Below, piece after piece: positions 1 to 31,033 of a stretch of DNA of 34,008 bases. Position 1 is the first letter of the stretch. Each line of letters opens with the position of its first letter. Source of the DNA: a virus; IMG/VR virus record IMGVR_UViG_3300031539_000159; one strand, 5' to 3'. The notes below the pieces were generated by a model. It saw nothing but the letters and a program-made list of their open reading frames with translations, had not been told where the DNA came from and made no database searches. Made by a program: the position numbers and the translations under genes.

Positions 1-127
1 GGGGGTTCAAAATGACAATGGGACATTGTAAGCATGGGGAATTCGAACTGACGAAAGGTTGTCCGCAATGTATCGCGGAACGCCAGGCGGCCCAGGAACG
101 GGAAGACGCCGAAGTCAATTCGCCCGA
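1..127. repeat. Terminal overlap: bases 1-127 are identical to 33882-34008, a circular-assembly signature
   Basis: Read directly from the sequence. Both copies start GGGGGTTCAAAATGACAATGG and end TCAATTCGCCCGA. 127 nt equals a commonly used maximal assembler k-mer. Confidence 0.9.
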
Positions 128-1331
128 CAATATCGGGAAGCGAATCAAGGAAGCCGAAGAAGCCGTCGCGGGGAAGGAAGTCCCGCGCCTTATCGTCAAG
201 GTCCAGTACCTTGACAGTTCCGACATTCCAGCGAAGGGGCGGGATTATTCTTACTTCACGGCGGAACCGCTGGCCGTCGGCGATAAGGTCCACGTACCCG
301 TTTATAACCGCGTCCAGAAGGCAATTGTCACAGCGATTGACGTTCCCGAATCCGAAATTGCCGCTTTCAGGGACAAGGTCAAAACCATTCCCGCGGGGTC
401 GAAGCTGACCGACCAGGGACCGACGGCCCAGGCCGCGGAAGAAGGGGCGGCGCGCAATCCTGAAGACGTCGTTCTTTGCGTCCACGGGGAAGACGCGAAC
501 ACTTGCCACGAATGCCAGGTCGAACGTGAACGGGATTGGTTGAATGCGAAGAAGACCGCTGAAGGTTACGGGACCATGTCGGGGTCAATGCCCGAACCGC
601 CCCAGGAAGAATTCAAGGGCGTTCCGTTCGGCGAAGGCGTCGTCGCGACTTCTTCGGAAGAACAAAAGCCGCCCGCCCTGGTCGTTATTGAAACCCAGGT
701 CGGCAAGCCCGCCCCTGAATTGCTTCGACTTTACCTGGAAGCCGCTTCCCTTCTTCGGATTGCGAAAGCGCGGACCATAACCACGAACGAAGACCTGAAG
801 CCCGCGACTGACGACCTGGCAATTATCTTGACTTGTCGAAAGGCCATGTCCGCCAGGAAGACGGAACTATACGGCCCGCTGAAGGCAAAGCTTGACCTGG
901 TCAACCAGTCATTCAACGACATTATGTTTCCCGTCCTGGAAGCCGACCGAATAACCAGGGACCAGGTAAACACCTTTGACAATGAGCAACGCCGCAAGGC
1001 CGCCGAAGCGAAACGTATCGAAGACGAAAAGTTCCGACTGGCCCAGGAAGAAGCAAAGCTGAACGGGACGGGGGAAATAACGGTTCCCCTGGGGACCGCC
1101 CAGGTCCCGCCGCCAGTCCCGAAGAACGTCCGAACGGAAATGGGGACCCTGGGGGGAAGGGACAACTGGAAAGCCCGCGTCGTTGACTTCAAGTTACTGG
1201 ACGACCAATGGAAGATTGCGAACGAATCCCTTCTGAATAGTCACGCGCGGACAACGAAGGGAACGCGCCCGATTCCAGGGGTCGAATTCTACAATGACCG
1301 AAGTGTCACAGTCCGAACCAGGGGGAATTGA
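12..1331 (+). CDS. Hypothetical protein with two Cys/His zinc-ribbon-like clusters and a coiled-coil C-terminal half
   Basis: 439-aa ORF. An AAGGGGG SD lies 7 nt upstream, visible in the duplicate copy at 33880-33892. It carries CKH..CPQC and CVH..CHEC clusters and a Lys/Glu/Ala-rich coiled coil followed by a beta-rich C-terminus. The C-terminal layout loosely recalls Mu Gam-type proteins, but this is unverified. Confidence 0.65.
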   Translation: MTMGHCKHGEFELTKGCPQCIAERQAAQEREDAEVNSPDNIGKRIKEAEEAVAGKEVPRLIVKVQYLDSSDIPAKGRDYSYFTAEPLAVGDKVHVPVYNRVQKAIVTAIDVPESEIAAFRDKVKTIPAGSKLTDQGPTAQAAEEGAARNPEDVVLCVHGEDANTCHECQVERERDWLNAKKTAEGYGTMSGSMPEPPQEEFKGVPFGEGVVATSSEEQKPPALVVIETQVGKPAPELLRLYLEAASLLRIAKARTITTNEDLKPATDDLAIILTCRKAMSARKTELYGPLKAKLDLVNQSFNDIMFPVLEADRITRDQVNTFDNEQRRKAAEAKRIEDEKFRLAQEEAKLNGTGEITVPLGTAQVPPPVPKNVRTEMGTLGGRDNWKARVVDFKLLDDQWKIANESLLNSHARTTKGTRPIPGVEFYNDRSVTVRTRGN

Positions 1332-1332
1332 C

Positions 1333-1470
1333 ATGGCCGACAAGTCGAAAGTCAAAGCGTGGTTGTTCCTTCTTCTGTCAAAAGTTGAAAGCGACGAAAT
1401 CGAAGACGCGAACTTGAAGGAAAGCGGGAAGACAATCACAGTCGAAATAAAATTCAAAAGGGGGAAATGA
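1333..1470 (+). CDS. Small hypothetical protein (45 aa)
   Basis: ATG lies 2 nt after the previous stop. AGGGGGA SD lies 6 nt upstream. It fills the gap before the next gene and falls below the ORF-track length cutoff. Confidence 0.4.
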   Translation: MADKSKVKAWLFLLLSKVESDEIEDANLKESGKTITVEIKFKRGK

Positions 1471-1474
1471 ACCA

Positions 1475-2080
1475 ATGACGAAGAAACTATCCGACCAGGC
1501 AAAGAAGGAAAAGAAGGAAATCAGGAAACAGCAAAAGGCGGCGTCGAAGACCGTCAAAACCGTTACCCAACCGAAGCATGAAGACCCGCCCGCGGAACCC
1601 GTGAATCTTTGCGACGATTGCGCGTACGAATACGGGGAATGTGAAGGCAAGCCGAAGTTCGCTTCCGACCAGGACGAAACCCTGACGGGGCCGGAAGCCG
1701 ACCGCGTTATCGAGTGCCCCGCCTTCGTCAACGTCGCCGCAATGCCGACCGCCCAGGAAGCGGCCGCGCCAGGTCCCGCGGCCGCTGAAGTAAAGGACCA
1801 GGGGGAAGGTCCCGACGCGGCCCATGACGGCGGCGACAAAGGTACCGCCGAAGCTGAAGAAGAACCGGAACCGGAAGTCAAGGTTATCCGGACGGACCTT
1901 CCGAAAGGGCCGGACCCGAAACGATTCCAGGCGGAAGAAGATTTCGGGGCTTGCCAGTCATGCGAAAGGCCCCTGAAGCGGACGGCCTTCAACCGATACC
2001 AGGACGCGGTCCGTTGTACGAACGTCCGTTGTCGGGCTTACCGCGCCGTCGTCAAAACAATATCGTCGGGGGTAAGATAA
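1475..2080 (+). CDS. Hypothetical protein with a Lys-rich N-terminus and Cys-rich motifs
   Basis: 201-aa ORF with AAAGGGGGA upstream. It has a CDDC..C.C cluster and a C-terminal CQSC..C..RC zinc-ribbon-like motif. Confidence 0.65.
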   Translation: MTKKLSDQAKKEKKEIRKQQKAASKTVKTVTQPKHEDPPAEPVNLCDDCAYEYGECEGKPKFASDQDETLTGPEADRVIECPAFVNVAAMPTAQEAAAPGPAAAEVKDQGEGPDAAHDGGDKGTAEAEEEPEPEVKVIRTDLPKGPDPKRFQAEEDFGACQSCERPLKRTAFNRYQDAVRCTNVRCRAYRAVVKTISSGVR

Positions 2081-2081
2081 C

Positions 2082-2993
2082 ATGGCGACCGATAAGAAGA
2101 TATTCCCGAAACAGCAACTTGAAATCGTCCAGGTCCAGGACCCGAAATCATATTCAGGCGGGACGAAGACGCTTCTTCCCGTCATGGCGAAGAACCTTTC
2201 ACTTGCCGAAGGCGACCCTGGATTTGGGAAGTCCTGGAAATATACCGTCTTCAACCAGGACCTTCAGGACCATATCAAGGGCTTGAAGGTTGGGGACCGC
2301 CGCCTTTGTGACATTGAAGAACACGAACGCCCCGACAGCGAATACGGGCCCGACCGGAACATTGTCCAGATATACGTTGAAGGGAAACCAGTATCACAGA
2401 AGAAGGGCGGCGGCGGCGGATATGGCAAGTCGCCCGAAATGATTCGCCTGGAACACGAACTTGACCTGGTCCTGGAAGGCGTGAAGCGCCGGTCCATTGA
2501 AGGGCAAACAGCAATCGCCCAGGTCGGGGCCGTCTTATCTTGTCCGAACCCGATACCTGGGGAAGCCCTGGGAATTGACGAAGAAGGCTGGTTCCGTATC
2601 CTGGACAAATACTGGCTGGCCGTGGAAAGGTCCCTGGACGTTTTCCTGGCCGAACCGAAGGCCCAGGAACCCGCGCCGAAGCGTGACCAGCGGGCCCAGG
2701 ATACGCAAGGGAAGGGTTCAAAGGCCGCGGCGGTAGTTTCCCATGACATACACAATCCGCCCGTCGAAAAGAAGAACCCGCCGCCTGACCCCGTGAAACA
2801 CGTCGGGGACCTTTTGACCAGGTCGTTGAAGTTGAAGCCGCCGGTTACGCGGGACGAACTTTGCGTCGGGGTAAACGTCAATGACCCGAAGGAAATCAAG
2901 GACCTGGAAGCGGCTTGGAAAACCGCCCAGGAATTAAGCGCGTCGAAGGTCCAGGGTAAGCCGAAGGCGGACGAAGAACAATTACCCTTCTGA
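2082..2993 (+). CDS. Hypothetical protein (possible OB-fold DNA-binding protein, speculative)
   Basis: 303-aa ORF starting 1 nt after the previous stop, with GGGGGTAAG SD. The beta-rich N-terminal half is followed by a GGGGGYG linker. Confidence 0.55.
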   Translation: MATDKKIFPKQQLEIVQVQDPKSYSGGTKTLLPVMAKNLSLAEGDPGFGKSWKYTVFNQDLQDHIKGLKVGDRRLCDIEEHERPDSEYGPDRNIVQIYVEGKPVSQKKGGGGGYGKSPEMIRLEHELDLVLEGVKRRSIEGQTAIAQVGAVLSCPNPIPGEALGIDEEGWFRILDKYWLAVERSLDVFLAEPKAQEPAPKRDQRAQDTQGKGSKAAAVVSHDIHNPPVEKKNPPPDPVKHVGDLLTRSLKLKPPVTRDELCVGVNVNDPKEIKDLEAAWKTAQELSASKVQGKPKADEEQLPF

Positions 2994-3002
2994 AAACGGG
3001 GC

Positions 3003-3032
3003 TTGACATTGCCGACACAACGGCGTTACAAT
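3003..3032 (+). promoter_or_regulatory. Sigma70-type promoter P1 (TTGACA-18 nt-TACAAT)
   Basis: TTGACA at 3003-3008 and TACAAT at 3027-3032, in the 65-nt gap before gene 3059. It shares GGGGCTTGACA with P2. Confidence 0.65.
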
Positions 3033-3058
3033 CTGAAAAACGAAAGGGGGGGGTTCAC

Positions 3059-3250
3059 ATGGTAAGCACAGAACACAAAAAGGGAAAGGTTGACCCCGCG
3101 AAGGTCGTTCGGAACTGGCGAATCCTGAAGGCGGTTGACCACAATCTACACTTGGAAGCCGCGAAGCGGGGCTTCAATTCGGTACCCGCCTTCCTGAATA
3201 ACCTTCTGACCCGATTCTTCGACGGCGAAACTATCAAGCGCGACCCGTAA
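3059..3250 (+). CDS. Ribbon-helix-helix-like small DNA-binding protein (candidate transcriptional regulator)
   Basis: 63 aa and the first gene after P1. The pattern WRILKAV (strand), HNLHLEAAKRG (helix), FNS, VPAFLNNLLTRFF (helix) fits the Arc/CopG layout. Confidence 0.45.
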   Translation: MVSTEHKKGKVDPAKVVRNWRILKAVDHNLHLEAAKRGFNSVPAFLNNLLTRFFDGETIKRDP

Positions 3251-3297
3251 ATCAAAAATGCGGGTCGCTTTTCATTTCCGAAAGGGGGAATAATTCA

Positions 3298-3996
3298 ATG
3301 GCAAAGACTGACAAGTCCACAAAGCCCGAACCCAAAGCCACGAAGACCCCGAAGGCCGAAGCGGTCCAACCGCTGAAGGTCGAAATCACCTTCCCGTCAA
3401 TCGCGGACCTGAAGCAAGCCCTGGCGTTCGACGGCGACGGGAACCTTATAATTGCCGTCCAGTTCAAGGCCCGCGTTGACCAGTACGAAATCTTCCGCCT
3501 GGTCAATCTTCTGAAGCAACCACACGGGACCTTGTACGCCATAATCGGAAGCCCGCAATCGGCAATGGACTTCAAGTTCGACACGAAGAAGGACAAGGTC
3601 GAAATAATCAAAGCGGCAAAGGCCCTTCCCCAGGGGAAGACCCAGGAACCGGCCGCGGAAGCGACCGACCAGGGCGGAACCGTTGTCAAGATTCACGCGG
3701 CGACCTTCAACCATATCCCCGACGAAGAAAAGCCGTTCGGCGTATGTATTGATTTCGTCAACGGGGACGGGGAAATCAGAACGGTTGCTGACCGCGGAAT
3801 GAATCCGACCGAAGCGGTCCTGGCGGGCGTGAAGGCGACCAACGCCTTTCCCGACAACGTGAAGGAACCATTCGAAGTCATGGCCGCGCTGGAATTACTC
3901 GACCCGTCGCCTGAAGCTTACAAACTCATTCGGGTACTCGAAGTCGGGTCATTTGACGAAGAACCTGTTCAGGAAGAAGGCGAAAAGGGGGAATAA
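3298..3996 (+). CDS. Hypothetical protein
   Basis: 232-aa ORF with CGAAAGGGGGAA SD. No recognisable motif. Confidence 0.65.
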   Translation: MAKTDKSTKPEPKATKTPKAEAVQPLKVEITFPSIADLKQALAFDGDGNLIIAVQFKARVDQYEIFRLVNLLKQPHGTLYAIIGSPQSAMDFKFDTKKDKVEIIKAAKALPQGKTQEPAAEATDQGGTVVKIHAATFNHIPDEEKPFGVCIDFVNGDGEIRTVADRGMNPTEAVLAGVKATNAFPDNVKEPFEVMAALELLDPSPEAYKLIRVLEVGSFDEEPVQEEGEKGE

Positions 3997-3999
3997 CGC

Positions 4000-4725
4000 A
4001 TGGGGGCCGAAAGTCGGTTACTATACGACGAACGGCCCCTGGTTGTCATTCCCGAACTGGCCGTCGTTGTCGGGCTTAATAGTGCCATTGCCCTTCAACA
4101 AGTCCATTATTGGGTAAGAATCAACCAGCGGGCCGATAAGAATTTTCGCGAAGGTTACTACTGGACATATAATACTTACGAAGCCTGGCGTGAACAATTC
4201 CCCTTTTGGTCCATTTCAACGGTCAAGCGAATCTTCATGGAACTGGAAGCGGACGGCCTTATCGTGACCGGAAGTTATAACCGACTTCCGATTGACCGGA
4301 CGAAGTGGTACCGCATAAATTACGACCGCCTGGGCGAATGTGTCAAATTGATACAATGGTCGGGTCAGAATGAACCAATGGTGAGCTCAAAATGGCCTCA
4401 TGGTCGGCTCAATTTGACCTCACCATTACCAGAGATTAAAACAGAGATTACAACAGAGAATAGGGTTATAGAGATATGGACCGAAACTTTGGAACAACTG
4501 AAGCTTCAAGTCAGCAAGGCGAATTTCCGAACCTGGTTGAAGGATATTGTCCCGCTTTCATTCGACGGCGAAGCTTTCGTCGTCGGGGCCAAAAGCACCT
4601 TCATTGCCGAATACCTGAACCATAATCAGCGGTCCCTTGTTGAAAAGACCTTGACCGAAGTTGTCGGCCAGGCCGTCATATTCGTATGTCAGGTCGCGCC
4701 GGTCAAGGAAGGGATAAAAACATGA
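4000..4725 (+). CDS. Replication initiator/organizer: N-terminal winged-HTH domain plus C-terminal DnaA-domain-I-like domain
   Basis: The N-terminus (ALQQVHYW...YWTYNTYEAWREQFPFWSISTVKRIFMELEADGLIV) matches the phage replisome-organizer/DnaD-like wHTH pattern. The C-terminus (IWTETLEQLKLQVSKANFRTWLKDIVPLSFDGEAFVVGAKSTFIAEYL...VIFV) matches the DnaA N-terminal domain pattern. Confidence 0.7.
   Translation: MGAESRLLYDERPLVVIPELAVVVGLNSAIALQQVHYWVRINQRADKNFREGYYWTYNTYEAWREQFPFWSISTVKRIFMELEADGLIVTGSYNRLPIDRTKWYRINYDRLGECVKLIQWSGQNEPMVSSKWPHGRLNLTSPLPEIKTEITTENRVIEIWTETLEQLKLQVSKANFRTWLKDIVPLSFDGEAFVVGAKSTFIAEYLNHNQRSLVEKTLTEVVGQAVIFVCQVAPVKEGIKT
4342..4418. repeat. 10-bp inverted repeat GTCAAATTGA / TCAATTTGAC flanking the ori-like segment
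   Basis: Arms at 4342-4351 and 4409-4418 are perfect reverse complements. ATGGTCGG recurs between them (about 4356 and 4400). Confidence 0.6.
4430..4476 (+). repeat. Candidate origin iterons: four CAGAGATTA-like direct repeats with 12-12-15 bp spacing
   Basis: CAGAGATTA at 4430 and 4442, CAGAGAATA at 4454, ATAGAGATA at 4468. They lie in an AT-rich patch within the interdomain linker of the initiator gene. Confidence 0.55.
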
Positions 4726-4916
4726 AACCGAAAGTTATTGTCCGCGGCCGCGACCCGAATTGCGTCCATTATTCGGATATAGTCGGTACTATCGGGACGT
4801 GTCGGGAATGCGGTCAAGTCGTTGATTACCGTCCCTGTCAGGAAGGGAAGAACGAATTACTGGCCGCGAAGGGAAGGAAGGGGGGAAAGGCGTATGCCGC
4901 GATTTATAGCGATTGA
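4722..4916 (+). CDS. Small zinc-ribbon protein (64 aa)
   Basis: ATGA overlap with the previous stop. C..H...CRECG motif. The start is moved inward from ORF-track 4686. Confidence 0.5.
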   Translation: MKPKVIVRGRDPNCVHYSDIVGTIGTCRECGQVVDYRPCQEGKNELLAAKGRKGGKAYAAIYSD

Positions 4917-5394
4917 CCCTTCGACGACGTTCACGGGTTGGGCCGTGTTCCAGGACCAGGGGCTTATCGCCTGGGGGAAGATTGATTCCAGGAAGATTCC
5001 GTACGCCGACCGATTCCCCTTCATTATCGGCGAACTGTCAAGGCGGGCGTCGCAATACGGCGCCCAGGAAGTCGCAATCGAAGACGTCAAATTTGCCTGG
5101 CATTCGAAGAACCGGCTTCGGAATATCGCTGGACTTCAGGTCGTCTTCCGGTCAATCCAGGAATGGGCGAAGGGAATGGACTATCCCCTGGCGCCCTATA
5201 ATCCCGCGACCTGGAAGAACGCCGTCGTCGGGGCTTACGCCGCCCCGAAGGAAATCACGAAGAACAATATCCGGTACCGCTTTCCAGCGGTCCCCGACGA
5301 CTTGACCGACCATGAGTACGACGCAATCGCAATCGGGGTTTACCACGGCGGGCTTCGGTTCCTGGAAGCCCTGGCGGAAGGGGGGACGAATTGA
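4894..5394 (+). CDS. ruvC: RuvC-like Holliday junction resolvase
   Basis: FIAIDPSTTFTGWAV (Asp1), VAIEDV (Glu), KNAVVGAYAAPKE and HEYDAIAIGVYH (His/Asp) match RuvC catalytic motifs. AAGGGGGGAAAGG SD precedes the ATG at 4894. Confidence 0.8.
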   Translation: MPRFIAIDPSTTFTGWAVFQDQGLIAWGKIDSRKIPYADRFPFIIGELSRRASQYGAQEVAIEDVKFAWHSKNRLRNIAGLQVVFRSIQEWAKGMDYPLAPYNPATWKNAVVGAYAAPKEITKNNIRYRFPAVPDDLTDHEYDAIAIGVYHGGLRFLEALAEGGTN

Positions 5395-5600
5395 CAGCAA
5401 TCCTTATCACAGCGACCGCCGAACATGATTGCGAACGATATTCCATTTGTCGGAAGCGTATCCTGGTCGGGGACCGCGCAATCAAGGCGACGGCCCGCCG
5501 TTCAAATTGCGGGGAATCCTATCCCGTGACCGTTTACTATCACGAAGCTTGTTATCAGGAACGCTTCGAATCACGAATGAAAGGGGGGAAGACGAAATGA
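5391..5600 (+). CDS. Small Cys/His-containing hypothetical protein
   Basis: 69 aa with a TTG start in a TTGA overlap with the ruvC stop. Carries C..C...C..HEAC residues. Confidence 0.45.
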   Translation: MTAILITATAEHDCERYSICRKRILVGDRAIKATARRSNCGESYPVTVYYHEACYQERFESRMKGGKTK

Positions 5601-5899
5601 ACATATTCGACGAACTGGACGCGGCCCTGGCCGACGTGAAGAAGGAAGCCGCAAAGGTCCAGAATGAAGTCGCCGCGTTGCGTCGGGAACGTGACGGCGA
5701 AGTGTGGTACTGGCAAGGCGACGGGGGCGACAAACTGGAAAGCCTGACTTGTCCCGTTCTTATCGAAGCCGAAGACCTTCGCGCTATATTGGCAAGGACG
5801 GCCAGGTTCAAAAAAGCTATACAGGAATTGGAAGCTGAACAATGTTACGGGTTCCCGTCACTTTGGGAAGCATTGTCGGAAGGGGATAAAAAACAATGA
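5597..5899 (+). CDS. Hypothetical coiled-coil protein (Ea22-like C-terminal motif, tentative)
   Basis: ATGA overlap and AAGGGGGGAAG SD. The WYWQGDGGDKLESLTCPVLIEAEDLR motif recalls the ead/Ea22-like family, from recollection only. Confidence 0.5.
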   Translation: MNIFDELDAALADVKKEAAKVQNEVAALRRERDGEVWYWQGDGGDKLESLTCPVLIEAEDLRAILARTARFKKAIQELEAEQCYGFPSLWEALSEGDKKQ

Positions 5900-6705
5900 T
5901 ATACGAAACCAAAGGGCGCGCCAGGGAATACTTCGAACTGGCGGCGAATCTATATTCGGGTTGCGAACACGCTTGCCGGTATTGTTACGGGGCGGACGTG
6001 ACCCGAAAGGACCCGAAGGAATTCTTCGGGCGGGCGGTTCCCAGGGAAAACGTCCTGGAAGAACTGGAAAAGGACGCGGCCAGGCTTGCCAGGAAGAACG
6101 AAATCCGCCATATCCTTTTGTCGTTCGTGACCGACCCGTATCAACCCCTGGAAGAAAAGCTGAACATTACCAGGCGGGCAATTCAGATATTACACAGATA
6201 CGACTTGCCAGTCGCAATTCTTACGAAGGGGGGCTTTCGGGCGACCAGGGACTTCGACCTTTTGACTACAAAGGATAGGTTAGATATTTTGAGTACGGAA
6301 GACTTATTTGGCGTTACCTTGACCTTCATGGACCCGCGCCGGTCGCGGACCTGGGAACCAGGGGCGGCCCTTCCGGTTGACCGAATGAAAAGCCTGGACG
6401 ACGCACACGCCCGCGGGATTCCGACCTGGGTATCCCTGGAACCCGTCATTGACCCCGCCGAATCGCTGGCCCTGATTGAAGCGACGGCGAAATTCGTTGA
6501 CGTCTTCAAGGTCGGGACCCTGAATTATCCGAACAAGCTTCCCTGGGATTTACGGGACCAGGTAAGGGGGATTGACTGGAAGAACTTCGCGCGGAACGCC
6601 GTCCTTTTGCTGGACCGCCTGGGGGCGAATTACTATATCAAAAAGGACCTGGCGCGGCATATCGGAAAGCCCGAAGGAATAACAAAAGGAAATGTCCCGA
6701 CGTGA
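5896..6705 (+). CDS. Radical SAM enzyme, DNA-repair-photolyase/SplB (COG1533)-like
   Basis: CEHACRYC (CX3CX2C) lies near the N-terminus after an ELAANLYSG segment. The downstream SFVTDPYQPLE motif is typical of the SPL-like family. ATGA overlap at the start. Confidence 0.7.
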   Translation: MIYETKGRAREYFELAANLYSGCEHACRYCYGADVTRKDPKEFFGRAVPRENVLEELEKDAARLARKNEIRHILLSFVTDPYQPLEEKLNITRRAIQILHRYDLPVAILTKGGFRATRDFDLLTTKDRLDILSTEDLFGVTLTFMDPRRSRTWEPGAALPVDRMKSLDDAHARGIPTWVSLEPVIDPAESLALIEATAKFVDVFKVGTLNYPNKLPWDLRDQVRGIDWKNFARNAVLLLDRLGANYYIKKDLARHIGKPEGITKGNVPT

Positions 6706-6811
6706 TAAGGATAAACCGCCAAAACCAAAGCCGCCGAAGAAGCCGAAGAAGCCGAAGAAGGGCGAACTGTCAAGCGGCGCGGGGGCATTGGTTCGGGAAG
6801 GTATAATATAA
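6692..6811 (+). CDS. Possible 39-aa Lys/Pro-rich basic micro-protein
   Basis: ATG with AAAGGA upstream. It encodes MSRRDKDKPPKPKPPKKPKKPKKG... and contains the 9-bp tandem repeat. It would otherwise leave a 126-nt gap. Confidence 0.25.
   Translation: MSRRDKDKPPKPKPPKKPKKPKKGELSSGAGALVREGII
6733..6759 (+). repeat. Perfect 9-bp tandem repeat (GCCGAAGAA) x3
   Basis: Read directly: 6733-6741, 6742-6750, 6751-6759. Confidence 0.9.
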
Positions 6812-6831
6812 CCGAAAGGGGGAATTGAAGA

Positions 6832-7038
6832 ATGGATATTATCGTTTGTTCAGAATGCGGACAAGGCATGGCGCGAATGGAAATGGTAAACGGGGTCGAA
6901 AAGGACTGGTCCAACGATACGCCCGTTTGCCCCGTTTGCCGCGGGGTACCTGGCGCGACGCCGCTGGTCCGGAAGCGCGACGTCCTGGGGGGCTTTCCCT
7001 GGAAGCGGGACCCGTCGGGGAAGAAGGTCGCGAAGTGA
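6832..7038 (+). CDS. Small zinc-ribbon protein (68 aa)
   Basis: CSEC...CPVC pairs. ACCGAAAGGGGGAA SD. Confidence 0.6.
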   Translation: MDIIVCSECGQGMARMEMVNGVEKDWSNDTPVCPVCRGVPGATPLVRKRDVLGGFPWKRDPSGKKVAK

Positions 7039-7151
7039 AGATTTTAGTCGCGTCAATCCTTTTCGCCTTGTGGTCAGGCATTATAATTTATCAGATAATT
7101 GGCGCCAGGCGCGCAAGGCGTCGAATGAATCGGGAAAGGGGGACGAAGTGA
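7035..7151 (+). CDS. 38-aa single-pass membrane peptide
   Basis: GTG start in a GTGA overlap. ILVASILFALWSGIIIYQIIG hydrophobic helix followed by an RRARRR tail. Confidence 0.4.
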   Translation: MKILVASILFALWSGIIIYQIIGARRARRRMNRERGTK

Positions 7152-7669
7152 ATATCGGCGGAAGCATAAGTGGGGCAATCTTCGGCGACGGCCGCCGATT
7201 CCGTTATGCGCTTTGGCGAAGGTGGAAGAATTCCCCGAAGAACCTGGACGCGCTTCTTTTCATTGGCTTGAACCCGTCCACGGCCAACGGGACGAAGGAC
7301 GACCCGACCGTCGTCCGCATGATAAACTTCGCGAAGTCCTGGGGATTCGGCGGCCTATTCGTCGGGAACCTTTTCAGTATCGTTTCGGCCGACCCCGCCG
7401 TCCTTCTGACGGACACGTCGAAGGAATTATACGGCGGTCCGAACGACGCGGCAATCAAGCAAATGCGGAACCTTTGTTCCCTGGTCGTCGTCGGTTGGGG
7501 GGAATTCGGAAAGCGTGTCGGGTACCGGCCCGCGGCGGTCCTGGACCTGGTCGGGGAACCCGTTTATTGTATCAAGTTGAACCGTTCGGGCGAACCGTCA
7601 CACCCGTTATATTTACCAGGTAATTCGAAGTTGATTCGATATTACCGAAAGGGGGCTTGCCATGAATAA
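7148..7669 (+). CDS. DUF1643-like protein
   Basis: RFRYALWRRW...LLFIGLNPSTANGTKDDPTVVRMINFAKSWGFGGLFVGNLF matches my recollection of the DUF1643 signature. GTG start with AAAGGGGGA SD and a GTGA overlap. Confidence 0.6.
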   Translation: MNIGGSISGAIFGDGRRFRYALWRRWKNSPKNLDALLFIGLNPSTANGTKDDPTVVRMINFAKSWGFGGLFVGNLFSIVSADPAVLLTDTSKELYGGPNDAAIKQMRNLCSLVVVGWGEFGKRVGYRPAAVLDLVGEPVYCIKLNRSGEPSHPLYLPGNSKLIRYYRKGACHE

Positions 7670-7868
7670 GGCCCTGAACTTCAGCGAATTACCCGAAGAA
7701 ACGAAGAAGCAACTGGCGGGCGTGATTGGCGTTATCCCTGGGAAGTGGGAAGTTTACGCGAAAGTTTGGCTTCTGCTAATATCGTTGAATTCGCTGGCCG
7801 ACGCGAAGTGGGTCGTCAATAGACTTCGCCGCATACTGGATAACATGGGTAAGAAGGGGGAAGCATGA
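7662..7868 (+). CDS. Hypothetical protein (68 aa)
   Basis: CGAAAGGGGGC SD. Overlaps the previous gene by 8 nt. Confidence 0.55.
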   Translation: MNKALNFSELPEETKKQLAGVIGVIPGKWEVYAKVWLLLISLNSLADAKWVVNRLRRILDNMGKKGEA

Positions 7869-8233
7869 ACACAGATAAAACGGCGGCCATGCCGACCGAT
7901 AACCAACCAGCGGAACAACCCGCCATGAATCGGAAGCAACGCCGACAAATGGCGAACCTGGCGAAGAAGTACCGGCCGCGGGGGAAGTGCCCCTTCCCTG
8001 GTTGCGGGCATACCTTCTTCCAGGAAGACGGACAACCGAACGCGTGTCCTGACCATAGGAAGCTAATCGCCGACGTGTTATACATAGTGAATCATACAAA
8101 GACGGGGGAACCTGAAGCCGTCGGCGGCAAAGACGGGAAGCCGGTAATCTATGTCCCGAAGCCTGGCGTATCAATGCGAACGCTGGAAATTGAATTGGCG
8201 GCCGAAGCCGCGAAAGGGGGTAATAAACCATGA
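7865..8233 (+). CDS. Hypothetical protein with a CPFPGCGH...CPDH zinc-finger-like motif
   Basis: 122-aa ORF with ATGA overlap and GGGGGAAGC SD. Confidence 0.55.
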   Translation: MNTDKTAAMPTDNQPAEQPAMNRKQRRQMANLAKKYRPRGKCPFPGCGHTFFQEDGQPNACPDHRKLIADVLYIVNHTKTGEPEAVGGKDGKPVIYVPKPGVSMRTLEIELAAEAAKGGNKP

Positions 8234-9210
8234 CGGACTTAAAATTCAAACTATCATTCGACGAACGCGGACGGGTAATATATCAACCAGGTGACATTGT
8301 CGGCGTCCGCGGGGGCAAAGGACCGATACCCTGGTTATCTTACCATGCCATTGTCCCGCAAACTCCATTGTTCCATTTCCTTCTTATCGGCGACCGTATC
8401 GGAACGGAAGATTACGTTATCCTGGAAAGTATCGGGAAGGGTACCGCCTTCGGGCGGCTTTCCTGGTATAGGAATCGCGAACACGTTGTCTTCCGCGTGA
8501 ACCACGAAAACGCCGAAGATATGGGAAACCTGGCCGTCAACCTGGCGTCGAAGTTCGGCCGCCGCCGGTACGACTGGAAGCTATATGTCCGAATCTTCGC
8601 CTGGGCCCTGGGTTACTGGTTGAAGGAAATCCTGAAGCTTCACTTCCCGCCGCGGCCAGTTTACCCGACGCAAATCCCATATAAGACCGACCAGGACTTC
8701 ATTTGTATTGAACTGGTCTTCGAAGCCTGGAAGGAAGTCGGCTTCAGAATTCGGGAACACGGACACGCGCCGGTTCCGGCCGAAGTTATCCTGGCCGTGG
8801 ACCGCGGGGACCTGGAAGTCATAGACAACCACGACGGGAATCCCGCGAACTGGCGGAATCATAAGTCCCCGTTATACACGGCGGCCAGGCAAATCGCCGA
8901 AGACCATAAACCGAAAGCGGGCGGCGATATTATCGGACGCCAGGGCGGGCAAAAGCGGAATCGGGCCCATATCTACCGACAACCGTACGGGTACCCGATT
9001 CGCCTTTGCGATTGGGCCGCCGTTGACGTGGAAACAATCGAACGAATCGGCGAAGCCCAGGGACTATGCGGACCGGCGGAATTGCGCGTCCTAGCCGCCG
9101 TCCTGGATTGGGCGGAAGCCACGAAGGGCGCCGTTATCTGTAAGCATTGTCGGGCCCTGGCCAAAGGCGAACGCGGACCGCTTATGGGCGGACCTGGGGG
9201 GTACGCATGA
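8230..9210 (+). CDS. YiiX/YaeF-like permuted papain-fold (NlpC/P60 superfamily) hydrolase with a C-terminal extension
   Basis: GDIVGVRG...HFLLIG...VILESIGKG...RRRYDW...FICIELVFEAWKEVGF resembles the permuted NlpC/P60 order, with the Cys in the last motif. Identified by eye only. Confidence 0.4.
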   Translation: MTDLKFKLSFDERGRVIYQPGDIVGVRGGKGPIPWLSYHAIVPQTPLFHFLLIGDRIGTEDYVILESIGKGTAFGRLSWYRNREHVVFRVNHENAEDMGNLAVNLASKFGRRRYDWKLYVRIFAWALGYWLKEILKLHFPPRPVYPTQIPYKTDQDFICIELVFEAWKEVGFRIREHGHAPVPAEVILAVDRGDLEVIDNHDGNPANWRNHKSPLYTAARQIAEDHKPKAGGDIIGRQGGQKRNRAHIYRQPYGYPIRLCDWAAVDVETIERIGEAQGLCGPAELRVLAAVLDWAEATKGAVICKHCRALAKGERGPLMGGPGGYA

Positions 9211-9884
9211 ACCAACCGGCGAAGAAGTCCCATAAAAAGAAGGTCAAGCCCTGGAACACATATCGGGCCGAAGAACGCCAGGAATACTTCTTCCTGATAT
9301 ACGAACAAATGGGCGTTGGCCGAACCCTGAAGCGATTGTGGGGCCTTGTCCGCGGGGTCGGGGTATCAATATCCCTGAAGACCCTGGAACGGTATTCGTC
9401 TTCATTCAACTGGCAAGTCCGGATACTCGAAAGGGCGGCCAGGCATGAAGCGGCCGACTTCGTGGAAATCCAGGACCAGGTTGACCAAATGACCCAGGAC
9501 CATATTCGAGTATTCCAGGATATAGGGGCCCTGGTCACGGCCGGAATCAAGCATTGGAAGAAGAAGATTGACGACCGTGTCGCCGCGGGCGCGGGGGACG
9601 GCCTGGAAATGGACCTGACCGACATTGGCCGCCTGGCGGACCTGTACCAAAAGGGCGAACGCCTGGCGCGGGGACTTGCCACGTCGAAGGCGGAAGTAAT
9701 TATCGAAGTCCTTCCGCCCCTGGTCAAGGATATATTCGCCGTCTTCCTGGCCGTGAACGTTATCACGAACGACCCGCCGGAACTGGTCCGGAAGCGGCAA
9801 GCCGAATTCATTACCCGCGCCGACGCGGTCATGGTCCTGTATTACGGCGGCCAAAAGCAAATCGGCGAAGGGGGCGGGAATTGA
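9207..9884 (+). CDS. Candidate terminase small subunit (HTH + coiled coil)
   Basis: Basic N-terminus, an HTH-like segment (GRTLKRLWGLV...ISLKTLERYSSSFNWQVR), then helical oligomerisation-like regions. It lies upstream of TerL but is separated from it by 6 genes. ATGA overlap at the start. Confidence 0.4.
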   Translation: MNQPAKKSHKKKVKPWNTYRAEERQEYFFLIYEQMGVGRTLKRLWGLVRGVGVSISLKTLERYSSSFNWQVRILERAARHEAADFVEIQDQVDQMTQDHIRVFQDIGALVTAGIKHWKKKIDDRVAAGAGDGLEMDLTDIGRLADLYQKGERLARGLATSKAEVIIEVLPPLVKDIFAVFLAVNVITNDPPELVRKRQAEFITRADAVMVLYYGGQKQIGEGGGN

Positions 9885-10135
9885 AACAGGAAGGGGACAA
9901 AGTAAATAAACGACCCAAACGATACAAGGAAGTCTTCAAAATGGAAGTTATTTTGGCGAAGGGGCGGGACGGTTCCCCTTTCTTATATCATCTTCAAGGT
10001 TATCAGCGGGGGAAGTGGATTGGGGGAAACTTGAATATCACTTCAAGGCGCGAACTCAACAAGCTTATCCGTCAATGGTTCAACGATATAGAAACGGAAA
10101 TAATGGGAACGGGATTTTGGAAGGGGGTTGAATGA
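9881..10135 (+). CDS. Hypothetical protein (84 aa) starting MKQEG
   Basis: TTG start in a TTGA overlap with GAAGGGGGC SD. An alternative ATG is at 9941. Confidence 0.45.
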   Translation: MKQEGDKVNKRPKRYKEVFKMEVILAKGRDGSPFLYHLQGYQRGKWIGGNLNITSRRELNKLIRQWFNDIETEIMGTGFWKGVE

Positions 10136-10351
10136 ATGAAACAGGAAGGGAATATCTTCATTGCGGAAAGCAAGGCGGACTTCAGCGGTTGGGAAGTAAT
10201 CAGCATTCAACCGGCGTTCAAGCCTGGCGTGAAGCGGGTCACGGTCCGGCATATCCCGCTGACCGTATCGAAGGAAACGCCCGCGGAATGCCGCTTGGTA
10301 TTCTGTAAGGACGAACACGTTCCGACTGAATTCCGAAAGGTCGCGGTATAA
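10136..10351 (+). CDS. Hypothetical protein (71 aa) starting MKQEG
   Basis: AAGGGGGTTGAATGA precedes the ATG. It shares a 14-nt 5' sequence with the previous gene. Confidence 0.5.
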   Translation: MKQEGNIFIAESKADFSGWEVISIQPAFKPGVKRVTVRHIPLTVSKETPAECRLVFCKDEHVPTEFRKVAV

Positions 10352-10881
10352 TGGCCAACTGTAAGCAATGCGGGGCCCCGCTGACGAAGGGGAATATCAA
10401 GTTCGTTCGGAAGCCTGGGAAGCGGCCGTATCGAGTATGTCGGCGTTGTCGGTATCCCGACGAAGTCGAAGTGACTAGGGTCGGCGACAAGCGTCGGTCC
10501 TTCGTTCGCCCGCCGTCCAGGGAAGACGGCCGACCCGACTTGACGGTCCTGGAAGACTTTGTCCAGGCACCTTCGGAAGCTATTCAAACGGTCAAGCTGG
10601 CCGGTAATATCGAAAGCACAGGGAACGCCCTTCAGCGGCCCCAGGTTAGCACAGGGGACCCGCTAGTGGTCGAAGGGATACTGGAACATCTGGACCCGCC
10701 GAAGTACCGTTATTTCGTAACCAGGGCGACGGCCGAAAAGATTCAACGGGCAATCAAGGGCGGTCAAGTCGGGATAACGGTCGAAGTGATTCCCGTCCCC
10801 GAATACCAGGTCGAAGCGGACCCTGACGCCCTGGGGGATTATGTCGAAATCAACTTCAGTCATTACGCCGTTGACCATTGA
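10351..10881 (+). CDS. Hypothetical protein with an N-terminal zinc ribbon (CKQC...CRRC)
   Basis: 176-aa ORF with TAATG overlap. Confidence 0.55.
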   Translation: MANCKQCGAPLTKGNIKFVRKPGKRPYRVCRRCRYPDEVEVTRVGDKRRSFVRPPSREDGRPDLTVLEDFVQAPSEAIQTVKLAGNIESTGNALQRPQVSTGDPLVVEGILEHLDPPKYRYFVTRATAEKIQRAIKGGQVGITVEVIPVPEYQVEADPDALGDYVEINFSHYAVDH

Positions 10882-10882
10882 A

Positions 10883-11062
10883 TTGACCCTGGACGAATGG
10901 TTCCTGATATGGGCCGCTGATAAGACGGCCCGCGCCCTGGGGCTTTCAATGACCTGGGAAAAGACTGAACACGGGGTTATAATAGGCATGGGGAAAACGA
11001 ATGAAGAAGATATATCAAACGACGTTCGGGGGCGTGAACGCGCCCGACGAAGAAAAGGGTAA
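10883..11062 (+). CDS. Possible small ORF (59 aa, TTG start)
   Basis: It fills the 119-nt gap before 11001 but overlaps the next gene by 62 nt. No clear SD. Confidence 0.2.
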   Translation: MTLDEWFLIWAADKTARALGLSMTWEKTEHGVIIGMGKTNEEDISNDVRGRERARRRKG

Positions 11063-11426
11063 TTGCTGGCAAGCTTGCGTCGCATCACTTCTGGAAATAC
11101 CCCTGGAAGAAGCGTTCGACTGTCGCCCTTATTGGGACCAGGGCGACGGGAAATGGTTCGACGATTTCAACGCCTGGTTGAAGGATTATGGCCTGGCCTG
11201 TATCGCCTTCGACCATACGGAAGAAAAGCCCCTTCCAGCGTCGCCTTTCCTGGGTTATCACCTGGGGGAATTCAAAAGCGCAACCTTGAAGAATGGGGAA
11301 ACCCATATATGCGTAATCCACAACGGGGACGTGGTCCATGACCCGAACCCACGGGCCGAAAGGGTTGGCGACGCATTGGGGTTATATCTATTCGTACCGC
11401 TGGACCCCGTGGAGTGGTCGAAGTGA
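11001..11426 (+). CDS. Papain-like cysteine peptidase (C39-like arrangement)
   Basis: GNCWQACVASLL is a candidate catalytic Cys after Asn/Gln. ETHICVIHNGDVVHDPNP is a candidate His/Asp. Size 141 aa. Confidence 0.45.
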   Translation: MKKIYQTTFGGVNAPDEEKGNCWQACVASLLEIPLEEAFDCRPYWDQGDGKWFDDFNAWLKDYGLACIAFDHTEEKPLPASPFLGYHLGEFKSATLKNGETHICVIHNGDVVHDPNPRAERVGDALGLYLFVPLDPVEWSK

Positions 11427-12328
11427 AAGTATTATTGCTTGACGTTGACGGAAAGCTTCCGAATATTGCCCTTCACAAGTTGGCGATATGGCACGAAGGC
11501 CAGGGCGACGAAGTGACCTGGAATATGCCGCTTTTCCTGAACCAGGCCGACAAGGTTTACATTTCAACAATACTGACGAAGTCGCGCCCGAAGGTTGAAA
11601 ACCTGGTTGGATTACGGCCCGACGCCGTCGTCGGCGGAACGGGTACCTGGGGCTGGTTCATTGACCCGCCGCCAAATTTCCTTCCTTGTCTTCCCGCGGA
11701 AGTTGAACTGGTCAAGGCCCGAATCAATTACGGGTTCACAACGCGGGGTTGTATTCGCCATTGTCCGTTTTGCCTGGTCCCGCTGGTTGAAGGAAATATC
11801 CGCGCGGTCGGGGATATATTCGACGTTTGGGACGGGAAGTCGAAGACCTTGACGTTATTCGATAATAATATCCTGGCCCTTCCGGAACACTTCGAAAGGA
11901 TTGTCACCCAACTGGTCGCTGAAGAACTGGTCGTTGACTTCAACCAGGGCCTTGATATTCGCTTGGTTACTTCTGGAATCGCCCGAATGTTATCAAGATT
12001 GAAAACAAAGGATATTCGATTCGCTTTTGATAGCCTATCGTTGGAAAGCGTTTTCCGTCGTAAAATAGACATATTGAGAAGTAACGGATTCCCGAATAAA
12101 TACTTCTTCGTTTATGTCCTGGTTGGCTTTGATACTACATTCGAAGAAGATATGTACCGCCTGGACGTATTGAAGGAATTAAAATGTCGGCCTTATGTAA
12201 TGCGCCATGAAAGAACGCCGAACGAACGAAGGTATAATGAAATGGCTTCATGGGCGAATCAACTATGGACTTTCGCGGAGTATAACTTTAGTGAGTATTG
12301 GAAATTCAGAACGGGGACAAACTTATGA
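11423..12328 (+). CDS. Radical SAM enzyme with an N-terminal Rossmann-like (B12-binding-like) domain
   Basis: TTRGCIRHCPFC (CX3CX2C) follows a KVLLLDVDG...ALHKLA flavodoxin-like N-terminus. GTG at 11423 has GGAG 8 nt upstream and a GTGA overlap. An alternative GTG is at 11414. Confidence 0.7.
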   Translation: MKVLLLDVDGKLPNIALHKLAIWHEGQGDEVTWNMPLFLNQADKVYISTILTKSRPKVENLVGLRPDAVVGGTGTWGWFIDPPPNFLPCLPAEVELVKARINYGFTTRGCIRHCPFCLVPLVEGNIRAVGDIFDVWDGKSKTLTLFDNNILALPEHFERIVTQLVAEELVVDFNQGLDIRLVTSGIARMLSRLKTKDIRFAFDSLSLESVFRRKIDILRSNGFPNKYFFVYVLVGFDTTFEEDMYRLDVLKELKCRPYVMRHERTPNERRYNEMASWANQLWTFAEYNFSEYWKFRTGTNL

Positions 12329-13806
12329 TAACGAAGACGCCGTACCTTTTCAAAGACGCCGCGACCGCGGTCGAAATCCGGCGGGCCGAAGACGTGGCCG
12401 ACTGGACCAGGACGCCCGCGACCCTGGGGAATCACTTGACGAACGGGTCGTACGAACGGATTCGGCATATTGACTTCCTGGCCGACATAATCGCCCAATG
12501 CGCGGAACGGGCCGTCTTCCTGGTAATCAACGTTCCGCCCCAACACGGCAAGTCCGAACTGGTTTCGCATTATACGCCCGTTTGGTTCCTGAAGAAGTTT
12601 CCCTGGAAGAAGGTCGGGCTGGCGTCGTACGAAATGGGATTCGCTTCAGAATGGGGCGGCAAGGCGAAGGACACGATTACCGAACACACCGACGAACTGA
12701 ATATCCAGCTTCGCCAGGACACGAAGGCGAAGGGCCGCTGGAACCTTCGCGGATACGGCGGCGGAATGACCGTTGCCGGTATCGGCGGCCCCTTCACGGG
12801 TCGGGGCTTCGACTTGATTGTCGTTGACGACCCTATTAAAAACGACGCTGAAGCCCTTTCGGAAGTGTACCGGCGCCGGAACTGGAACTGGTATCGTTCC
12901 GTCGTCCGGCCCAGGCTTCAACCTGGCGGGTCCATTATCGTCATTATGACCCGCTGGCATGAACAAGACCTGGCGGGGGCCTTGTTGGGGAACCCGCCGG
13001 AAGACGAAGAAGAACTGCTTATTGAAGAAGACGTCGAACCGGACCCCTGGGAATGTATCAACCTTCCGGCCCTGGCCGAAGAAAACGACGTCCTGGGGCG
13101 GAAACCAGGGGAAGCCCTTTGGCCCACGCGGTACGACGAAACGGCCCTGAAGAAGCTTCGGGTCGCCGCCGGTCCCTTTTGGTGGACCGCGCAATACCGC
13201 GGGAAGCCGCAACCTGAAGGCGGCGGTATCATCAAAACGGCCTGGTTCAAGTCGTACGAAGACGAAGACCTTCCGCCGACCTTTTCCCGCGTCGTCCAGA
13301 TATGGGATACGGCACACAAGGAAAAGCAACGACATGACCGTTCGGCGTGTCTTACCATTGGCCAGGCGAACAACCCGCGCCGGTATTACCTTCTGGACCT
13401 GTACGTTGCCAGGCTTACCTTTCCGGACCTGAATCGGGCGGCCGAAGCGCAATATGACAAATGGGAACCGGACCGCGTCGTGATTGAAGATAAGTCTTCC
13501 GGAATATCCCTTATCCAGCAACTTCGGCGGGATACGAAGGTCCCGATTCGGGCGGTCAAGGCCATTGACGACAAGGTCACGCGGGCCCATACCGTAACCG
13601 GCGTCATGGAAGCGGGCCAGGTCCTTATCCCGCGTCATGCTTCCTGGTTGGCCGATTTCCTGAAGGAAGTCGGGGACTTCCCGACCGGCGCGCATGACGA
13701 TATTGTTGACGTCCTGGTCCACGGCTTGCGCTTCCTGAAGCCGCGATTGAAGGGGCACCGCCAGGGGGTCGAAGTGGAAGCGAAGAAGTCCCGCTGGCGT
13801 GACTGA
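12325..13806 (+). CDS. terL: Terminase large subunit
   Basis: The ATPase shows PPQHGKSE (Walker A-like), LIVVDDP (Walker B) and MTRWHEQDL. The C-terminal nuclease shows IWDTA, VVIEDKSSG and HDDIVD. ATGA overlap at the start. Confidence 0.9.
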   Translation: MITKTPYLFKDAATAVEIRRAEDVADWTRTPATLGNHLTNGSYERIRHIDFLADIIAQCAERAVFLVINVPPQHGKSELVSHYTPVWFLKKFPWKKVGLASYEMGFASEWGGKAKDTITEHTDELNIQLRQDTKAKGRWNLRGYGGGMTVAGIGGPFTGRGFDLIVVDDPIKNDAEALSEVYRRRNWNWYRSVVRPRLQPGGSIIVIMTRWHEQDLAGALLGNPPEDEEELLIEEDVEPDPWECINLPALAEENDVLGRKPGEALWPTRYDETALKKLRVAAGPFWWTAQYRGKPQPEGGGIIKTAWFKSYEDEDLPPTFSRVVQIWDTAHKEKQRHDRSACLTIGQANNPRRYYLLDLYVARLTFPDLNRAAEAQYDKWEPDRVVIEDKSSGISLIQQLRRDTKVPIRAVKAIDDKVTRAHTVTGVMEAGQVLIPRHASWLADFLKEVGDFPTGAHDDIVDVLVHGLRFLKPRLKGHRQGVEVEAKKSRWRD

Positions 13807-13807
13807 A

Positions 13808-14029: not shown

Positions 14030-14055
14030 CACTTTCGGGGAAATGGAAGTAAACT
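14026..14055 (+). promoter_or_regulatory. Candidate sigma70-type promoter P4 (TTGACA-18 nt-TAAACT)
   Basis: TTGACA at 14026-14031 overlaps the stop of the previous gene. TAAACT is at 14050-14055. The 18-nt spacer matches P1-P3, and it precedes the portal gene. Confidence 0.45.
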
Positions 14056-30921: not shown

Positions 30922-30937
30922 CGTCTTCCTTTCGGAC

Positions 30938-30974: not shown

Positions 30975-31033
30975 TATTATTTGCCCTTACCAGCGGCCCC
31001 AGGGCGGCCAACACGGGGCCCCAGGACCTTCGC

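Follow-up and report, generated by a model that had tools for sequence, protein, structure and literature searches.

The 34,008-nucleotide (nt) stretch of viral DNA recorded in IMG/VR as IMGVR_UViG_3300031539_000159, called the window below, raises the question of where its replication starts. A replication initiator gene lies at positions 4000 to 4725 on the plus strand, and its middle part, which encodes a linker between two protein domains, contains densely packed repeats. An earlier note on this DNA had likened this segment to the origin that phage lambda carries inside its own initiator gene. The repeats, a tract of low duplex stability after the iterons, and the domain layout of the protein support the comparison, and we consider it likely, from the sequence and from analogy with known systems, that positions 4338 to 4477 form a theta replication origin inside the linker of the phage’s own initiator gene. 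The contigs of relatives measure 34.4 to 35.0 kb, which makes the window nearly a complete genome.

The initiator gene encodes 241 amino acids (aa) and is the sole long open reading frame (ORF) over the repeat segment. In its product, a disordered linker joins an N-terminal winged-helix domain to a C-terminal domain with the DnaA domain I fold, the layout that had been read from the sequence in the earlier note and that Pfam, structure modeling, and structure comparison bore out. In an AlphaFold2 model built on 24 homologues, aa ~15 to 121 and 153 to 232 form confident domains, and linker residues 123 to 149 have a predicted local distance difference test score below 50. The C-terminal domain (aa 153 to 232; coding region 4456 to 4695, plus strand) matches Pfam DnaA_N (PF11638) at aa 158 to 218 with 36 bits (cut-off 24.6). 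When compared by Foldseek, it aligned with Bacillus subtilis DnaA domain I (4tps_D/B) at E 7e-6, a target-normalized TM-score of 0.90 to 0.93, and a root mean square deviation of ~1.0 Å; it also resembles Helicobacter pylori DnaA domain I (2wp0) and DciA. The N-terminal region belongs to the family of phrog_6493, labeled “DnaD-like helicase loader” (PHROG search, aa 5 to 155, E 1.6e-41), and several further PHROG “replication initiation” families also hit it. Foldseek returned weak winged-helix matches for this domain (MarR/PadR-like, TFE-alpha, and the DnaD N-terminal domain; E 0.01 to 0.1), while a PDB sequence search with the N-domain family profile gave only PadR-like matches at E 0.2. A large protein search recovered 681 homologues of the N-domain family. 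The DnaD/DnaB_2 C-terminal domain (PF07261) is missing from the initiator and its close relatives, in which PF11638 is found instead; more distant phrog_6493-type members carry PF07261 or Phg_2220_C as C-terminal domains.

The most regular feature of the segment is a set of four plus-strand 22-base pair (bp) units, which are probably the initiator-specific iterons, as judged from their sequence. Both a repeat search and Tandem Repeats Finder placed the unit starts at exact 22-bp spacing, at 4338, 4360, 4382, and 4404. A position weight matrix (PWM) trained only on the iterons of relatives, with a background of −33 ± 10.6 bits, scored iteron 1 (ATGTGTCAAATTGATACAATGG, 4338 to 4359, palindromic core GTCAAATTGA(C)) at 27.1 bits, iteron 2 (TCGGGTCAGAATGAACCAATGG, 4360 to 4381) at 26.6 bits, iteron 3 (TGAGCTCAAAATGGCCTCATGG, 4382 to 4403) at 21.2 bits, and iteron 4 (TCGGCTCAATTTGACCTCACCA, 4404 to 4425) at 24.9 bits. 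Every unit contains a palindromic core of the GGTCA-N3-TGACC type; iterons 1 and 4 have cores that are reverse complements of each other, and the core of iteron 4 forms, together with its flanks, a palindrome of ~27 bp. Matches to the core with up to two mismatches occur ~30 times per 68 kb (both strands), and the four iterons are their only phased cluster. Eight close metagenomic relatives (L005 and L049 to L055), which share the domain layout and 77 to 89% aa identity with the window’s initiator, yield the iteron consensus tcGggTCAAaaTGAcccnATgG; their own iterons are nearer to it than those of the window, for example, GGTCAAAATGACC in L050. The units are placed between the end of the N-terminal domain and the start of the C-terminal domain at aa 153. 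Since the former ends at aa ~113 to 121, iteron 1 overlaps the last N-domain helix, while iterons 2 to 4 and the first unit of the 12-mer array described below are encoded by the segment predicted to be disordered.

The 22-bp repeat was not recognized in the earlier note, which had instead recorded several of its fragments. It had reported a 10-bp inverted repeat, GTCAAATTGA (4342 to 4351) and TCAATTTGAC (4409 to 4418), which is indeed 100% complementary, and a duplicated ATGGTCGG, whose two copies are at 4356 and 4400; the window holds only one more, at 31245. Both are pieces of the 22-bp units, the inverted repeat being the relation between the cores of iterons 1 and 4. The GAGCTC site singled out there begins at 4383, within iteron 3, and is unique in the window. 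Searches for an internal promoter or terminator gave weak consensus matches only, none of them at the repeats, and DnaA boxes (up to one mismatch) numbered 4 versus 4.8 expected, with none near 4.4 kb.

The 22-bp period is not a consequence of the encoded peptide. As 22 is not a multiple of 3, successive iterons are translated in different frames, using all three. We redrew every codon from the genome’s own usage while keeping the protein fixed, producing 3000 synonymous versions. Self-identity at lag 22, which amounts to 44 of 66 positions in the actual sequence, was reached by none of them (0 of 3000); the maximum over lags 9 to 30 averaged 32.8 ± 2.4 in the resampled versions, the largest being 41.

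Immediately 3′ of the iterons, a 12-bp repeat takes over. The junction CCATTACC is followed by the units CAGAGATTAAAA, CAGAGATTACAA, and CAGAGAATAGGG (4422 to 4463, plus strand), the window’s version of a cross-family CAGAGAyTACnA array; the local pattern is CAGAGAwTAnnA at 4430, 4442, and 4454, with a degenerate copy near 4470. In the earlier note, this part was described as four direct repeats. The copies at 4430 and 4442 are exact (CAGAGATTA) and the one at 4454 reads CAGAGAATA, whereas the fourth (TAGAGATAT, 4469 to 4477, plus strand) is degenerate and is not kept in close relatives; the spacings were measured as 12, 12, and 15 to 16 bp. The claim that AGAGA is otherwise rare was also correct: there are five occurrences on the plus strand, four of them at 4431 to 4474, and none on the minus strand, compared to ~29 expected per strand. 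The designation of the CAGAGATTA 12-mers as iterons was probably a mislabeling, as the upstream palindrome-cored units fill that role and the 12-mers stand where lambda has its AT-rich unwinding region.

From its low duplex stability and position, we propose that the segment 4427 to 4476 is the DNA unwinding element (DUE), with the CAGAGAyTAC units as its specific part. By nearest-neighbor free energy, this is the region of lowest duplex stability: positions 4437 to 4476 are the least stable 40-bp stretch of all 34 kb (−45.4 kcal/mol versus a mean of −59.0, standard deviation 4.2), and 4427 to 4476 ranks second among 50-bp stretches of the whole 34 kb. At every size tested, the 12-mer region is the least stable within positions 1 to 11000. 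The top strand of 4427 to 4476 is 68% purine, with a GC content of 0.34; GC dips to 0.33 to 0.43 in the linker segment. The 12-bp periodicity alone was matched by 8% of the synonymous resamplings, which indicates that the peptide (EIKT-EITT-ENRV) contributes to it. The DNA-level character of the 12-mers is therefore seen in codon choice rather than in periodicity.

This codon choice is highly unusual for the genome, in whose 27 genes Glu is encoded by 567 GAA and 15 GAG codons. The initiator gene contains 17 GAA and 4 GAG codons, and all four GAG are the consecutive Glu codons of the 12-mers, at 4432, 4444, 4456, and 4471. The trinucleotide itself is depleted genome-wide ~16-fold (73 GAG/CTC observed versus ~1156 expected), and 9 of the 73 fall in 4383 to 4473, the densest cluster of the window. 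Among 7959 windows of 15 codons in the 27 genes, the one at 4420 to 4464 ranks last in codon adaptation. What the earlier note said of atypical composition and codons thus holds as regards low GC, poor codon adaptation, and in-frame ATA (4351, 4468, and 4474; AGG also occurs, at 4462), but there is no in-frame AGA. Because the genome avoids GAG/CTC, the segment carries a natural control by which selection on the DNA can be told apart from selection on the protein with unusual clarity.

Comparison of the eight close relatives, in which conservation could be assessed despite synonymous freedom, led to the same result. Of the degenerate codons whose amino acid is conserved, 12 of 16 do not vary inside 4340 to 4480, compared to 35 of 110 outside (Fisher p = 0.0016), and within 4420 to 4452 the count is 8 of 8. 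An invariant run at 4422 to 4436 is the longest in the gene, and over 4422 to 4450 the sole departures from invariance are the loss of 1 nt in L054 and a single substitution in L052. Across the whole family, the Glu of the tripeptide [TP]E[ITN] is encoded by GAG 58 times and by GAA 6 times in the linker, compared to 6 GAG and 36 GAA for this tripeptide in the remainder of the loci (Fisher p = 6e-16). When only loci of less than 0.45 GC are counted, the GAG:GAA ratios are 20:2 and 2:11, respectively. In front of the linker Glu, 59 of 64 codons are ACA or CCA. A pooled count of all linker Glu codons shows a weak GAG effect (p = 0.047) because many homologues have poly-Glu tails; the peptide-matched test was used for this reason. 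The segment is constrained at the DNA level, not at the peptide level.

Two side observations were made in the course of this analysis. The L054 deletion (positions 525 to 674 of that locus) lies in the first 12-mer unit (CAGAGA-AAAAA) and puts the initiator gene out of frame; either misassembly or a defective copy could account for it. The depletion of GAG/CTC is common to relatives L005 and L049 to L052, and other words are depleted in the window as well (observed versus expected): GATC, 0 versus 144; CCCGG/CCGGG, 0 versus 70; GATG/CATC, 14 versus 139; and GCAG/CTGC, 12 versus 121. CAGAC, CACTG, and many 6-bp palindromes (GATATC, GTCGAC, CCATGG, ACCGGT, and TCATGA) are altogether absent. Judging by these counts, the pattern looks like massive avoidance of restriction or another defense.

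No nucleotide similarity to the window was found among 50,697 phage records, yet the N-terminal domain is widespread. Homologues with 33 to 40% aa identity are present in Staphylococcus phage fPfSau02, Bacillus phage BhaS-171, and Providencia phage PSTCR8lys, and GGTCAAAATGACC-cored repeats occupy the same gene position in all three, at a spacing of 22, 23, or 46 bp. Successive copies in these genes are translated as GQND and then, in another frame, as SKW. The homologues therefore keep the DNA across reading frames, contrary to the idea, raised in the earlier note as an objection to its own proposal, that the repeats merely follow from a conserved peptide repeat. PSTCR8lys also has four AGAGAnTAC units at 12-bp spacing.

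We then extended the comparison to 44 non-redundant homologues with a GC content of 0.26 to 0.65, of which the array carriers span 0.35 to 0.65 and come from both Gram-positive and Gram-negative hosts. After a conserved DRTKWY motif, an iteron array always comes first, with a core that varies by subfamily; then follows a near-universal block, CCAATACC-AGAGAyTACnAC-AGAGAyTAC, and the last iteron also reads TCAATTTGA or TCAACTTGA. Just after the iterons, 31 of the 44 homologues have two or more AGAGA copies spaced 10 to 12 bp apart; among 825 control windows taken from these loci, 2 do. The logo of the 12-mer unit is C-AGAGA-n-T-A-C-n-a-C, and 11 of the 90 units depart from the usual codon phase. 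Since the 12-mers are common to many subfamilies and the 22-mers vary between them, the 22-mers are the likelier initiator-specific iterons.

The reach of the 12-mer extends beyond this protein family. At least 120 IMG/VR contigs contain the exact 22-nt pattern CAGAGAYTACNACAGAGAYTAC, and 80 of the loci (L103 to L182) were fetched and inspected. A window-type N-terminal domain is encoded upstream in 34 of the 80; ~40 have no match to the N-domain hidden Markov model at E < 1e-3, almost all of them with a different iteron array just upstream; and 6 lie too near the locus edge to judge. The proteins at these loci belong to PHROG initiator families 9773, 678, 391, 270, 428, 1347, and 6493, and 78 of the 80 arrays lie in ORFs of the same codon phase. 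L113 and L182 are apparently unrelated tandem or peptide repeats. A 49-nt consensus matched 139 phage records, nearly all under genes with a replication initiator, O-like, or DnaD-like annotation. The hosts include Acinetobacter, Bacillus, Staphylococcus, Klebsiella, Pseudomonas, Burkholderia, Vibrio, and Synechococcus, and Stx prophages were matched as well. The consensus also occurs in 66 plasmid records. We considered whether canonical 12-mer arrays are tied to Pfam Phage_rep_O (PF04492) and rejected this, as six motif-bearing initiators of other families have no PF04492 match; by BLASTP, the “O” protein of the L109-type Escherichia coli prophage is not lambda O–like.

One plasmid carries the array in a different setting. 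In pBamNAU-B3a of Bacillus velezensis (NC_022531.1, L232), positions 7257 to 7380 contain four CCTACAGGGAAA iterons and three copies of ACAGAGATTACT, within 1.4 kb that has no ORF of 64 aa or more, which demonstrates that the 12-mer array exists outside an intact gene too. The region may descend from an initiator gene that has decayed, work as a plasmid origin that is served in trans, or act as a decoy of a phage origin. The plasmid itself is 8.4 kb long and mobilizable, with no recognizable initiator of the window kind, and a second repeat set (ATGTGTTGAC, three copies) lies 120 bp downstream.

Altogether, the 12-mer array adjoins iterons of many unrelated sequences in phages whose hosts include Bacillota, Pseudomonadota, and Cyanobacteria, and its carriers represent at least seven PHROG initiator families and at least four kinds of C-terminal domain. 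On these grounds, we tentatively suggest that the CAGAGAyTACnA array may be an undescribed cis-element, conserved across phyla, of origins located in or derived from phage initiator genes, a proposal about which we are nearly evenly divided and lean slightly to caution. That the 12-mer is kept at the nucleotide level even against 16-fold GAG avoidance points to recognition by a factor common to all carriers. This factor could be a surface conserved throughout the initiator superfamily that acts on single-stranded DNA, or it could come from the host, as a universal replisome component such as the replicative helicase or primase. A search of full texts for GTCAAAATGAC and 12-mer variants returned only primers and unrelated genes, and no description of the motif was found in the searchable literature, a scope that does not include the 2006 review by Weigel and Seitz.

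The arrangement in the window closely follows that of experimentally defined phage origins. Lambda and the Stx phages carry such an origin inside gene O; that of lambda lies in the middle of the gene and consists of iterons followed by an AT-rich tract (PMC7466680). The lambda iterons occupy nt 348 to 433 of the gene and those of the window nt 339 to 426; in both cases, four dyad-symmetric iterons, about two helical turns apart, lie between the DNA-binding and recruitment domains, with an easily melted purine-rich tract on their 3′ side. The only link between the two proteins is transitive: both match phrog_678 at overlapping profile positions, lambda O with aa 1 to 172 (E 1.7e-35) and the window protein with aa 28 to 154 (E 5e-7). 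The window protein has no Pfam match to Phage_rep_O at E ≤ 0.01, and its direct comparison to lambda O gave a BLASTP E of 5.9 and an hhalign probability of 0.2%. The iteron sequences also differ, being of the GGTCAAAATGACC type in the window and TCCCTCAAAACGAGGGA in lambda; the AT-rich tract of lambda contains, by eye, at most degenerate 12-mer copies; and lambda O has a P-binding domain where the window protein has the DnaA domain I fold, the window being without a P-like loader gene.

Similarly, oriL of phage SPP1 lies in gene 38, where AB boxes and a DUE suffice for replication in vitro (PMC5737612). It shares with the window iterons and an adjacent DUE inside the initiator gene in the same polarity, while the box sequence differs from the window iterons. 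G38P and the window protein are not detectably related (BLASTP E 0.34, hhalign probability 0.4%, no Phg_2220_C match), and SPP1 encodes its own loader and helicase (G39P and G40P), which the window does not. Close N-domain homologues in Geobacillus and Staphylococcus phages do adjoin genes for a G39P-like loader and a DnaB-like helicase. In phage 80alpha, ORF20 could not be complemented in trans, from which an origin inside the gene was inferred, and ORF20 together with ORF21 suffices for replication (PMC5499656). ORF20 is reported to be G38P-like, that is, of a family other than the window’s, and its origin sequence is undefined. Bacterial oriC and iteron plasmids resemble the window in having initiator-binding repeats flanked by a DUE with short tandem repeats. 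The 13-mers of E. coli oriC and the window 12-mers are unrelated in sequence, and, unlike oriC, the window origin would lie inside a gene with no DnaA boxes nearby. The 241-aa window protein differs from DnaA in lacking the AAA+ domain III and domain IV. Origins located in initiator genes are an already known kind, to which the window would add a member; the cross-family 12-mer is likely the new part.

How such an origin would work can be proposed from its parts. Dimers of the N-terminal winged-helix domain would bind the four 22-bp iterons, each through its palindromic core, and, because the iterons are two helical turns apart, would be aligned on the same face of the DNA. The resulting nucleoprotein complex would destabilize the adjacent CAGAGAyTAC 12-mer array, and the DnaA domain I–like C-terminal domain would bring in the host replicative helicase. 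DnaA domain I is a helicase-contacting module. Searches of the 28 window proteins scanned recognized no helicase, loader, or primase; the fusion of an origin-binding domain to a DnaA domain I fold in such a phage suggests direct capture of the host helicase. From the sequence, we infer that iteron binding by the initiator, melting of the 12-mers, helicase recruitment, and the start of replication would all take place at 4.4 kb.

Several observations weigh against this assignment. The cumulative GC skew does not change direction at 4.4 kb, but skew is uninformative for this phage type. Other low-GC stretches exist at 26.8 to 27.3 kb and 12.0 to 12.3 kb, and a 390-bp intergenic region at 30.9 to 31.28 kb could host an origin; none of these places has an iteron array. 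Direct homology to lambda O or to SPP1 G38P was not detected, so the analogy is architectural. Most 12-mer units (88%) are read in the same frame, and there is conservation of the peptide T-E-I/T-T as such, so a role at the peptide level may exist alongside the one at the DNA level. Last, the sequences compared in the Fisher tests are phylogenetically related, which overstates their independence and makes the p-values optimistic, while the direction and size of the effects are clear.

The repeats could alternatively be explained without an origin at this place. Iteron-binding initiators, such as those of iteron plasmids, commonly autoregulate, and the repeats might be initiator-binding sites that serve autoregulation only, as a transcriptional roadblock or by translational repression, with the origin elsewhere, for example, at 30.9 to 31.28 kb. 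Isolated iteron-like copies at 14013 and 7564 mean that the protein probably has non-origin sites, and repeats beside an early promoter (31129 to 31171) contain the half-site AATGACCC. An operator, however, needs no adjacent 12-mer array of minimum stability that is conserved across initiator families; 4338 to 4425 is the sole phased multicopy array of the window; and its position and polarity agree with the experimentally defined origins of lambda and SPP1. We therefore regard autoregulation as the sole function as unlikely. That the repeats reflect only a low-complexity linker peptide (EIKT-EITT-ENRV) or an mRNA hairpin, with no DNA function, is less probable still and is largely refuted. 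The peptide does reproduce the 12-bp period in 8% of resamplings and its T-E-x-T motif is conserved, but it never reproduced the 22-bp units, which are mutually out of frame, and it explains neither the codon-level constraint nor the 12-mer units in other frames nor the noncoding plasmid copy. The predicted RNA hairpin at 4355 to 4427 is stable (z = −3.07) but shows no covariation in the eight relatives (term +0.84) and no match in Rfam; it was rejected as an RNA element and is a by-product of the palindromic iterons.

The 12-mer block might also be a recombination joint at which N- and C-terminal initiator modules are swapped in frame, without any part in initiation. The same block links N-terminal families phrog_6493, 9773, 678, 270, and 391 to C-terminal partners as different as DnaA_N, DnaB_2/DnaD, Phg_2220_C, and lambda-O-C-like domains, and the single codon phase of 78 of 80 arrays is what in-frame exchange demands. 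Yet selection for exchangeability is unlikely to fix codons across a GC range of 0.35 to 0.65, across phyla, and against 16-fold GAG avoidance; the array also stands beside iterons in noncoding plasmid DNA and coincides with the duplex-stability minimum. A joint with no role in initiation thus appears improbable to us. The two roles are not exclusive, and use as a joint may be a secondary consequence.

Isolated iteron copies also lie elsewhere in the window. A fifth copy, AAGTGTCAAGTTGATACAATCG, lies on the minus strand at 14013 to 14034, 60 bp upstream of a probable portal gene; it is identical to iteron 1 at 19 of 22 positions and scores 25.6 bits with the PWM. Relatives L224, L226, and L228 have it at the same place although the adjacent 13804 to 13998 is replaced or deleted. 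By its sequence, it is tentatively a second initiator-binding site. A second G38P site, oriR, is described far from oriL of SPP1 (PMC3485210), and the 14013 iteron may, by analogy, be the counterpart of that site. A weaker and tentative iteron-like site, ACGGTTCAACTTGATACAATAA, is found on the minus strand at 7564 to 7585 (16.6 bits). Between the probable terminase and portal genes, the segment 13804 to 13998, which holds a small ORF (13799 to 14029, 76 aa), is a variable insertion site: L228 lacks it, and L224 has unrelated sequence in its place.

The only sizeable intergenic region of the window, 30890 to 31280, has a near-consensus promoter (TTGACA-N18-TATACT, ~31211 to 31240), and its sequence suggests that it is probably an early promoter/operator region. 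Just upstream of the promoter, at 31129 to 31171, are two 22-bp direct repeats, AATCACCCAAAAGAATGACCC and AATCGCCCGAAAGTATGACCC, whose right half, AATGACCC, resembles an iteron half-site. Downstream of the initiator gene lie a small Zn-ribbon-like ORF and the gene for a RuvC-like resolvase. Most close relatives (L005, L049, L050, and L052, compared over 4686 to 4916) have an additional acidic initiator tail of ~60 aa (ETINDKIR...EEQLEAWFKELT). The window initiator is without this tail; the gene stops at 4725, and a different 76-aa CxxC...CxxC ORF overlaps or follows it, so that, in sequence, the 3′ end looks like the result of module replacement. Accessory early genes at 4822 to 5394, 5896 to 6705, 7070 to 7669, 11414 to 12328, and 32429 to 33289 encode products that include the RuvC-like resolvase, two radical-SAM proteins, a DUF1643 protein, and a match to the PHROG “DNA topoisomerase” family phrog_6247. 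No polymerase was recognized in the window either, and it has no tRNAs and no Rfam matches.

Overall, the analysis places a probable origin within ~140 bp for an uncultured phage lineage of ~35 kb. If the 12-mer array is truly an element of such origins, it would be a portable signature for predicting where phages initiate replication. Hundreds of phage initiator genes share this 12-mer, and, if functional, it would provide a handle on origin melting or helicase loading.

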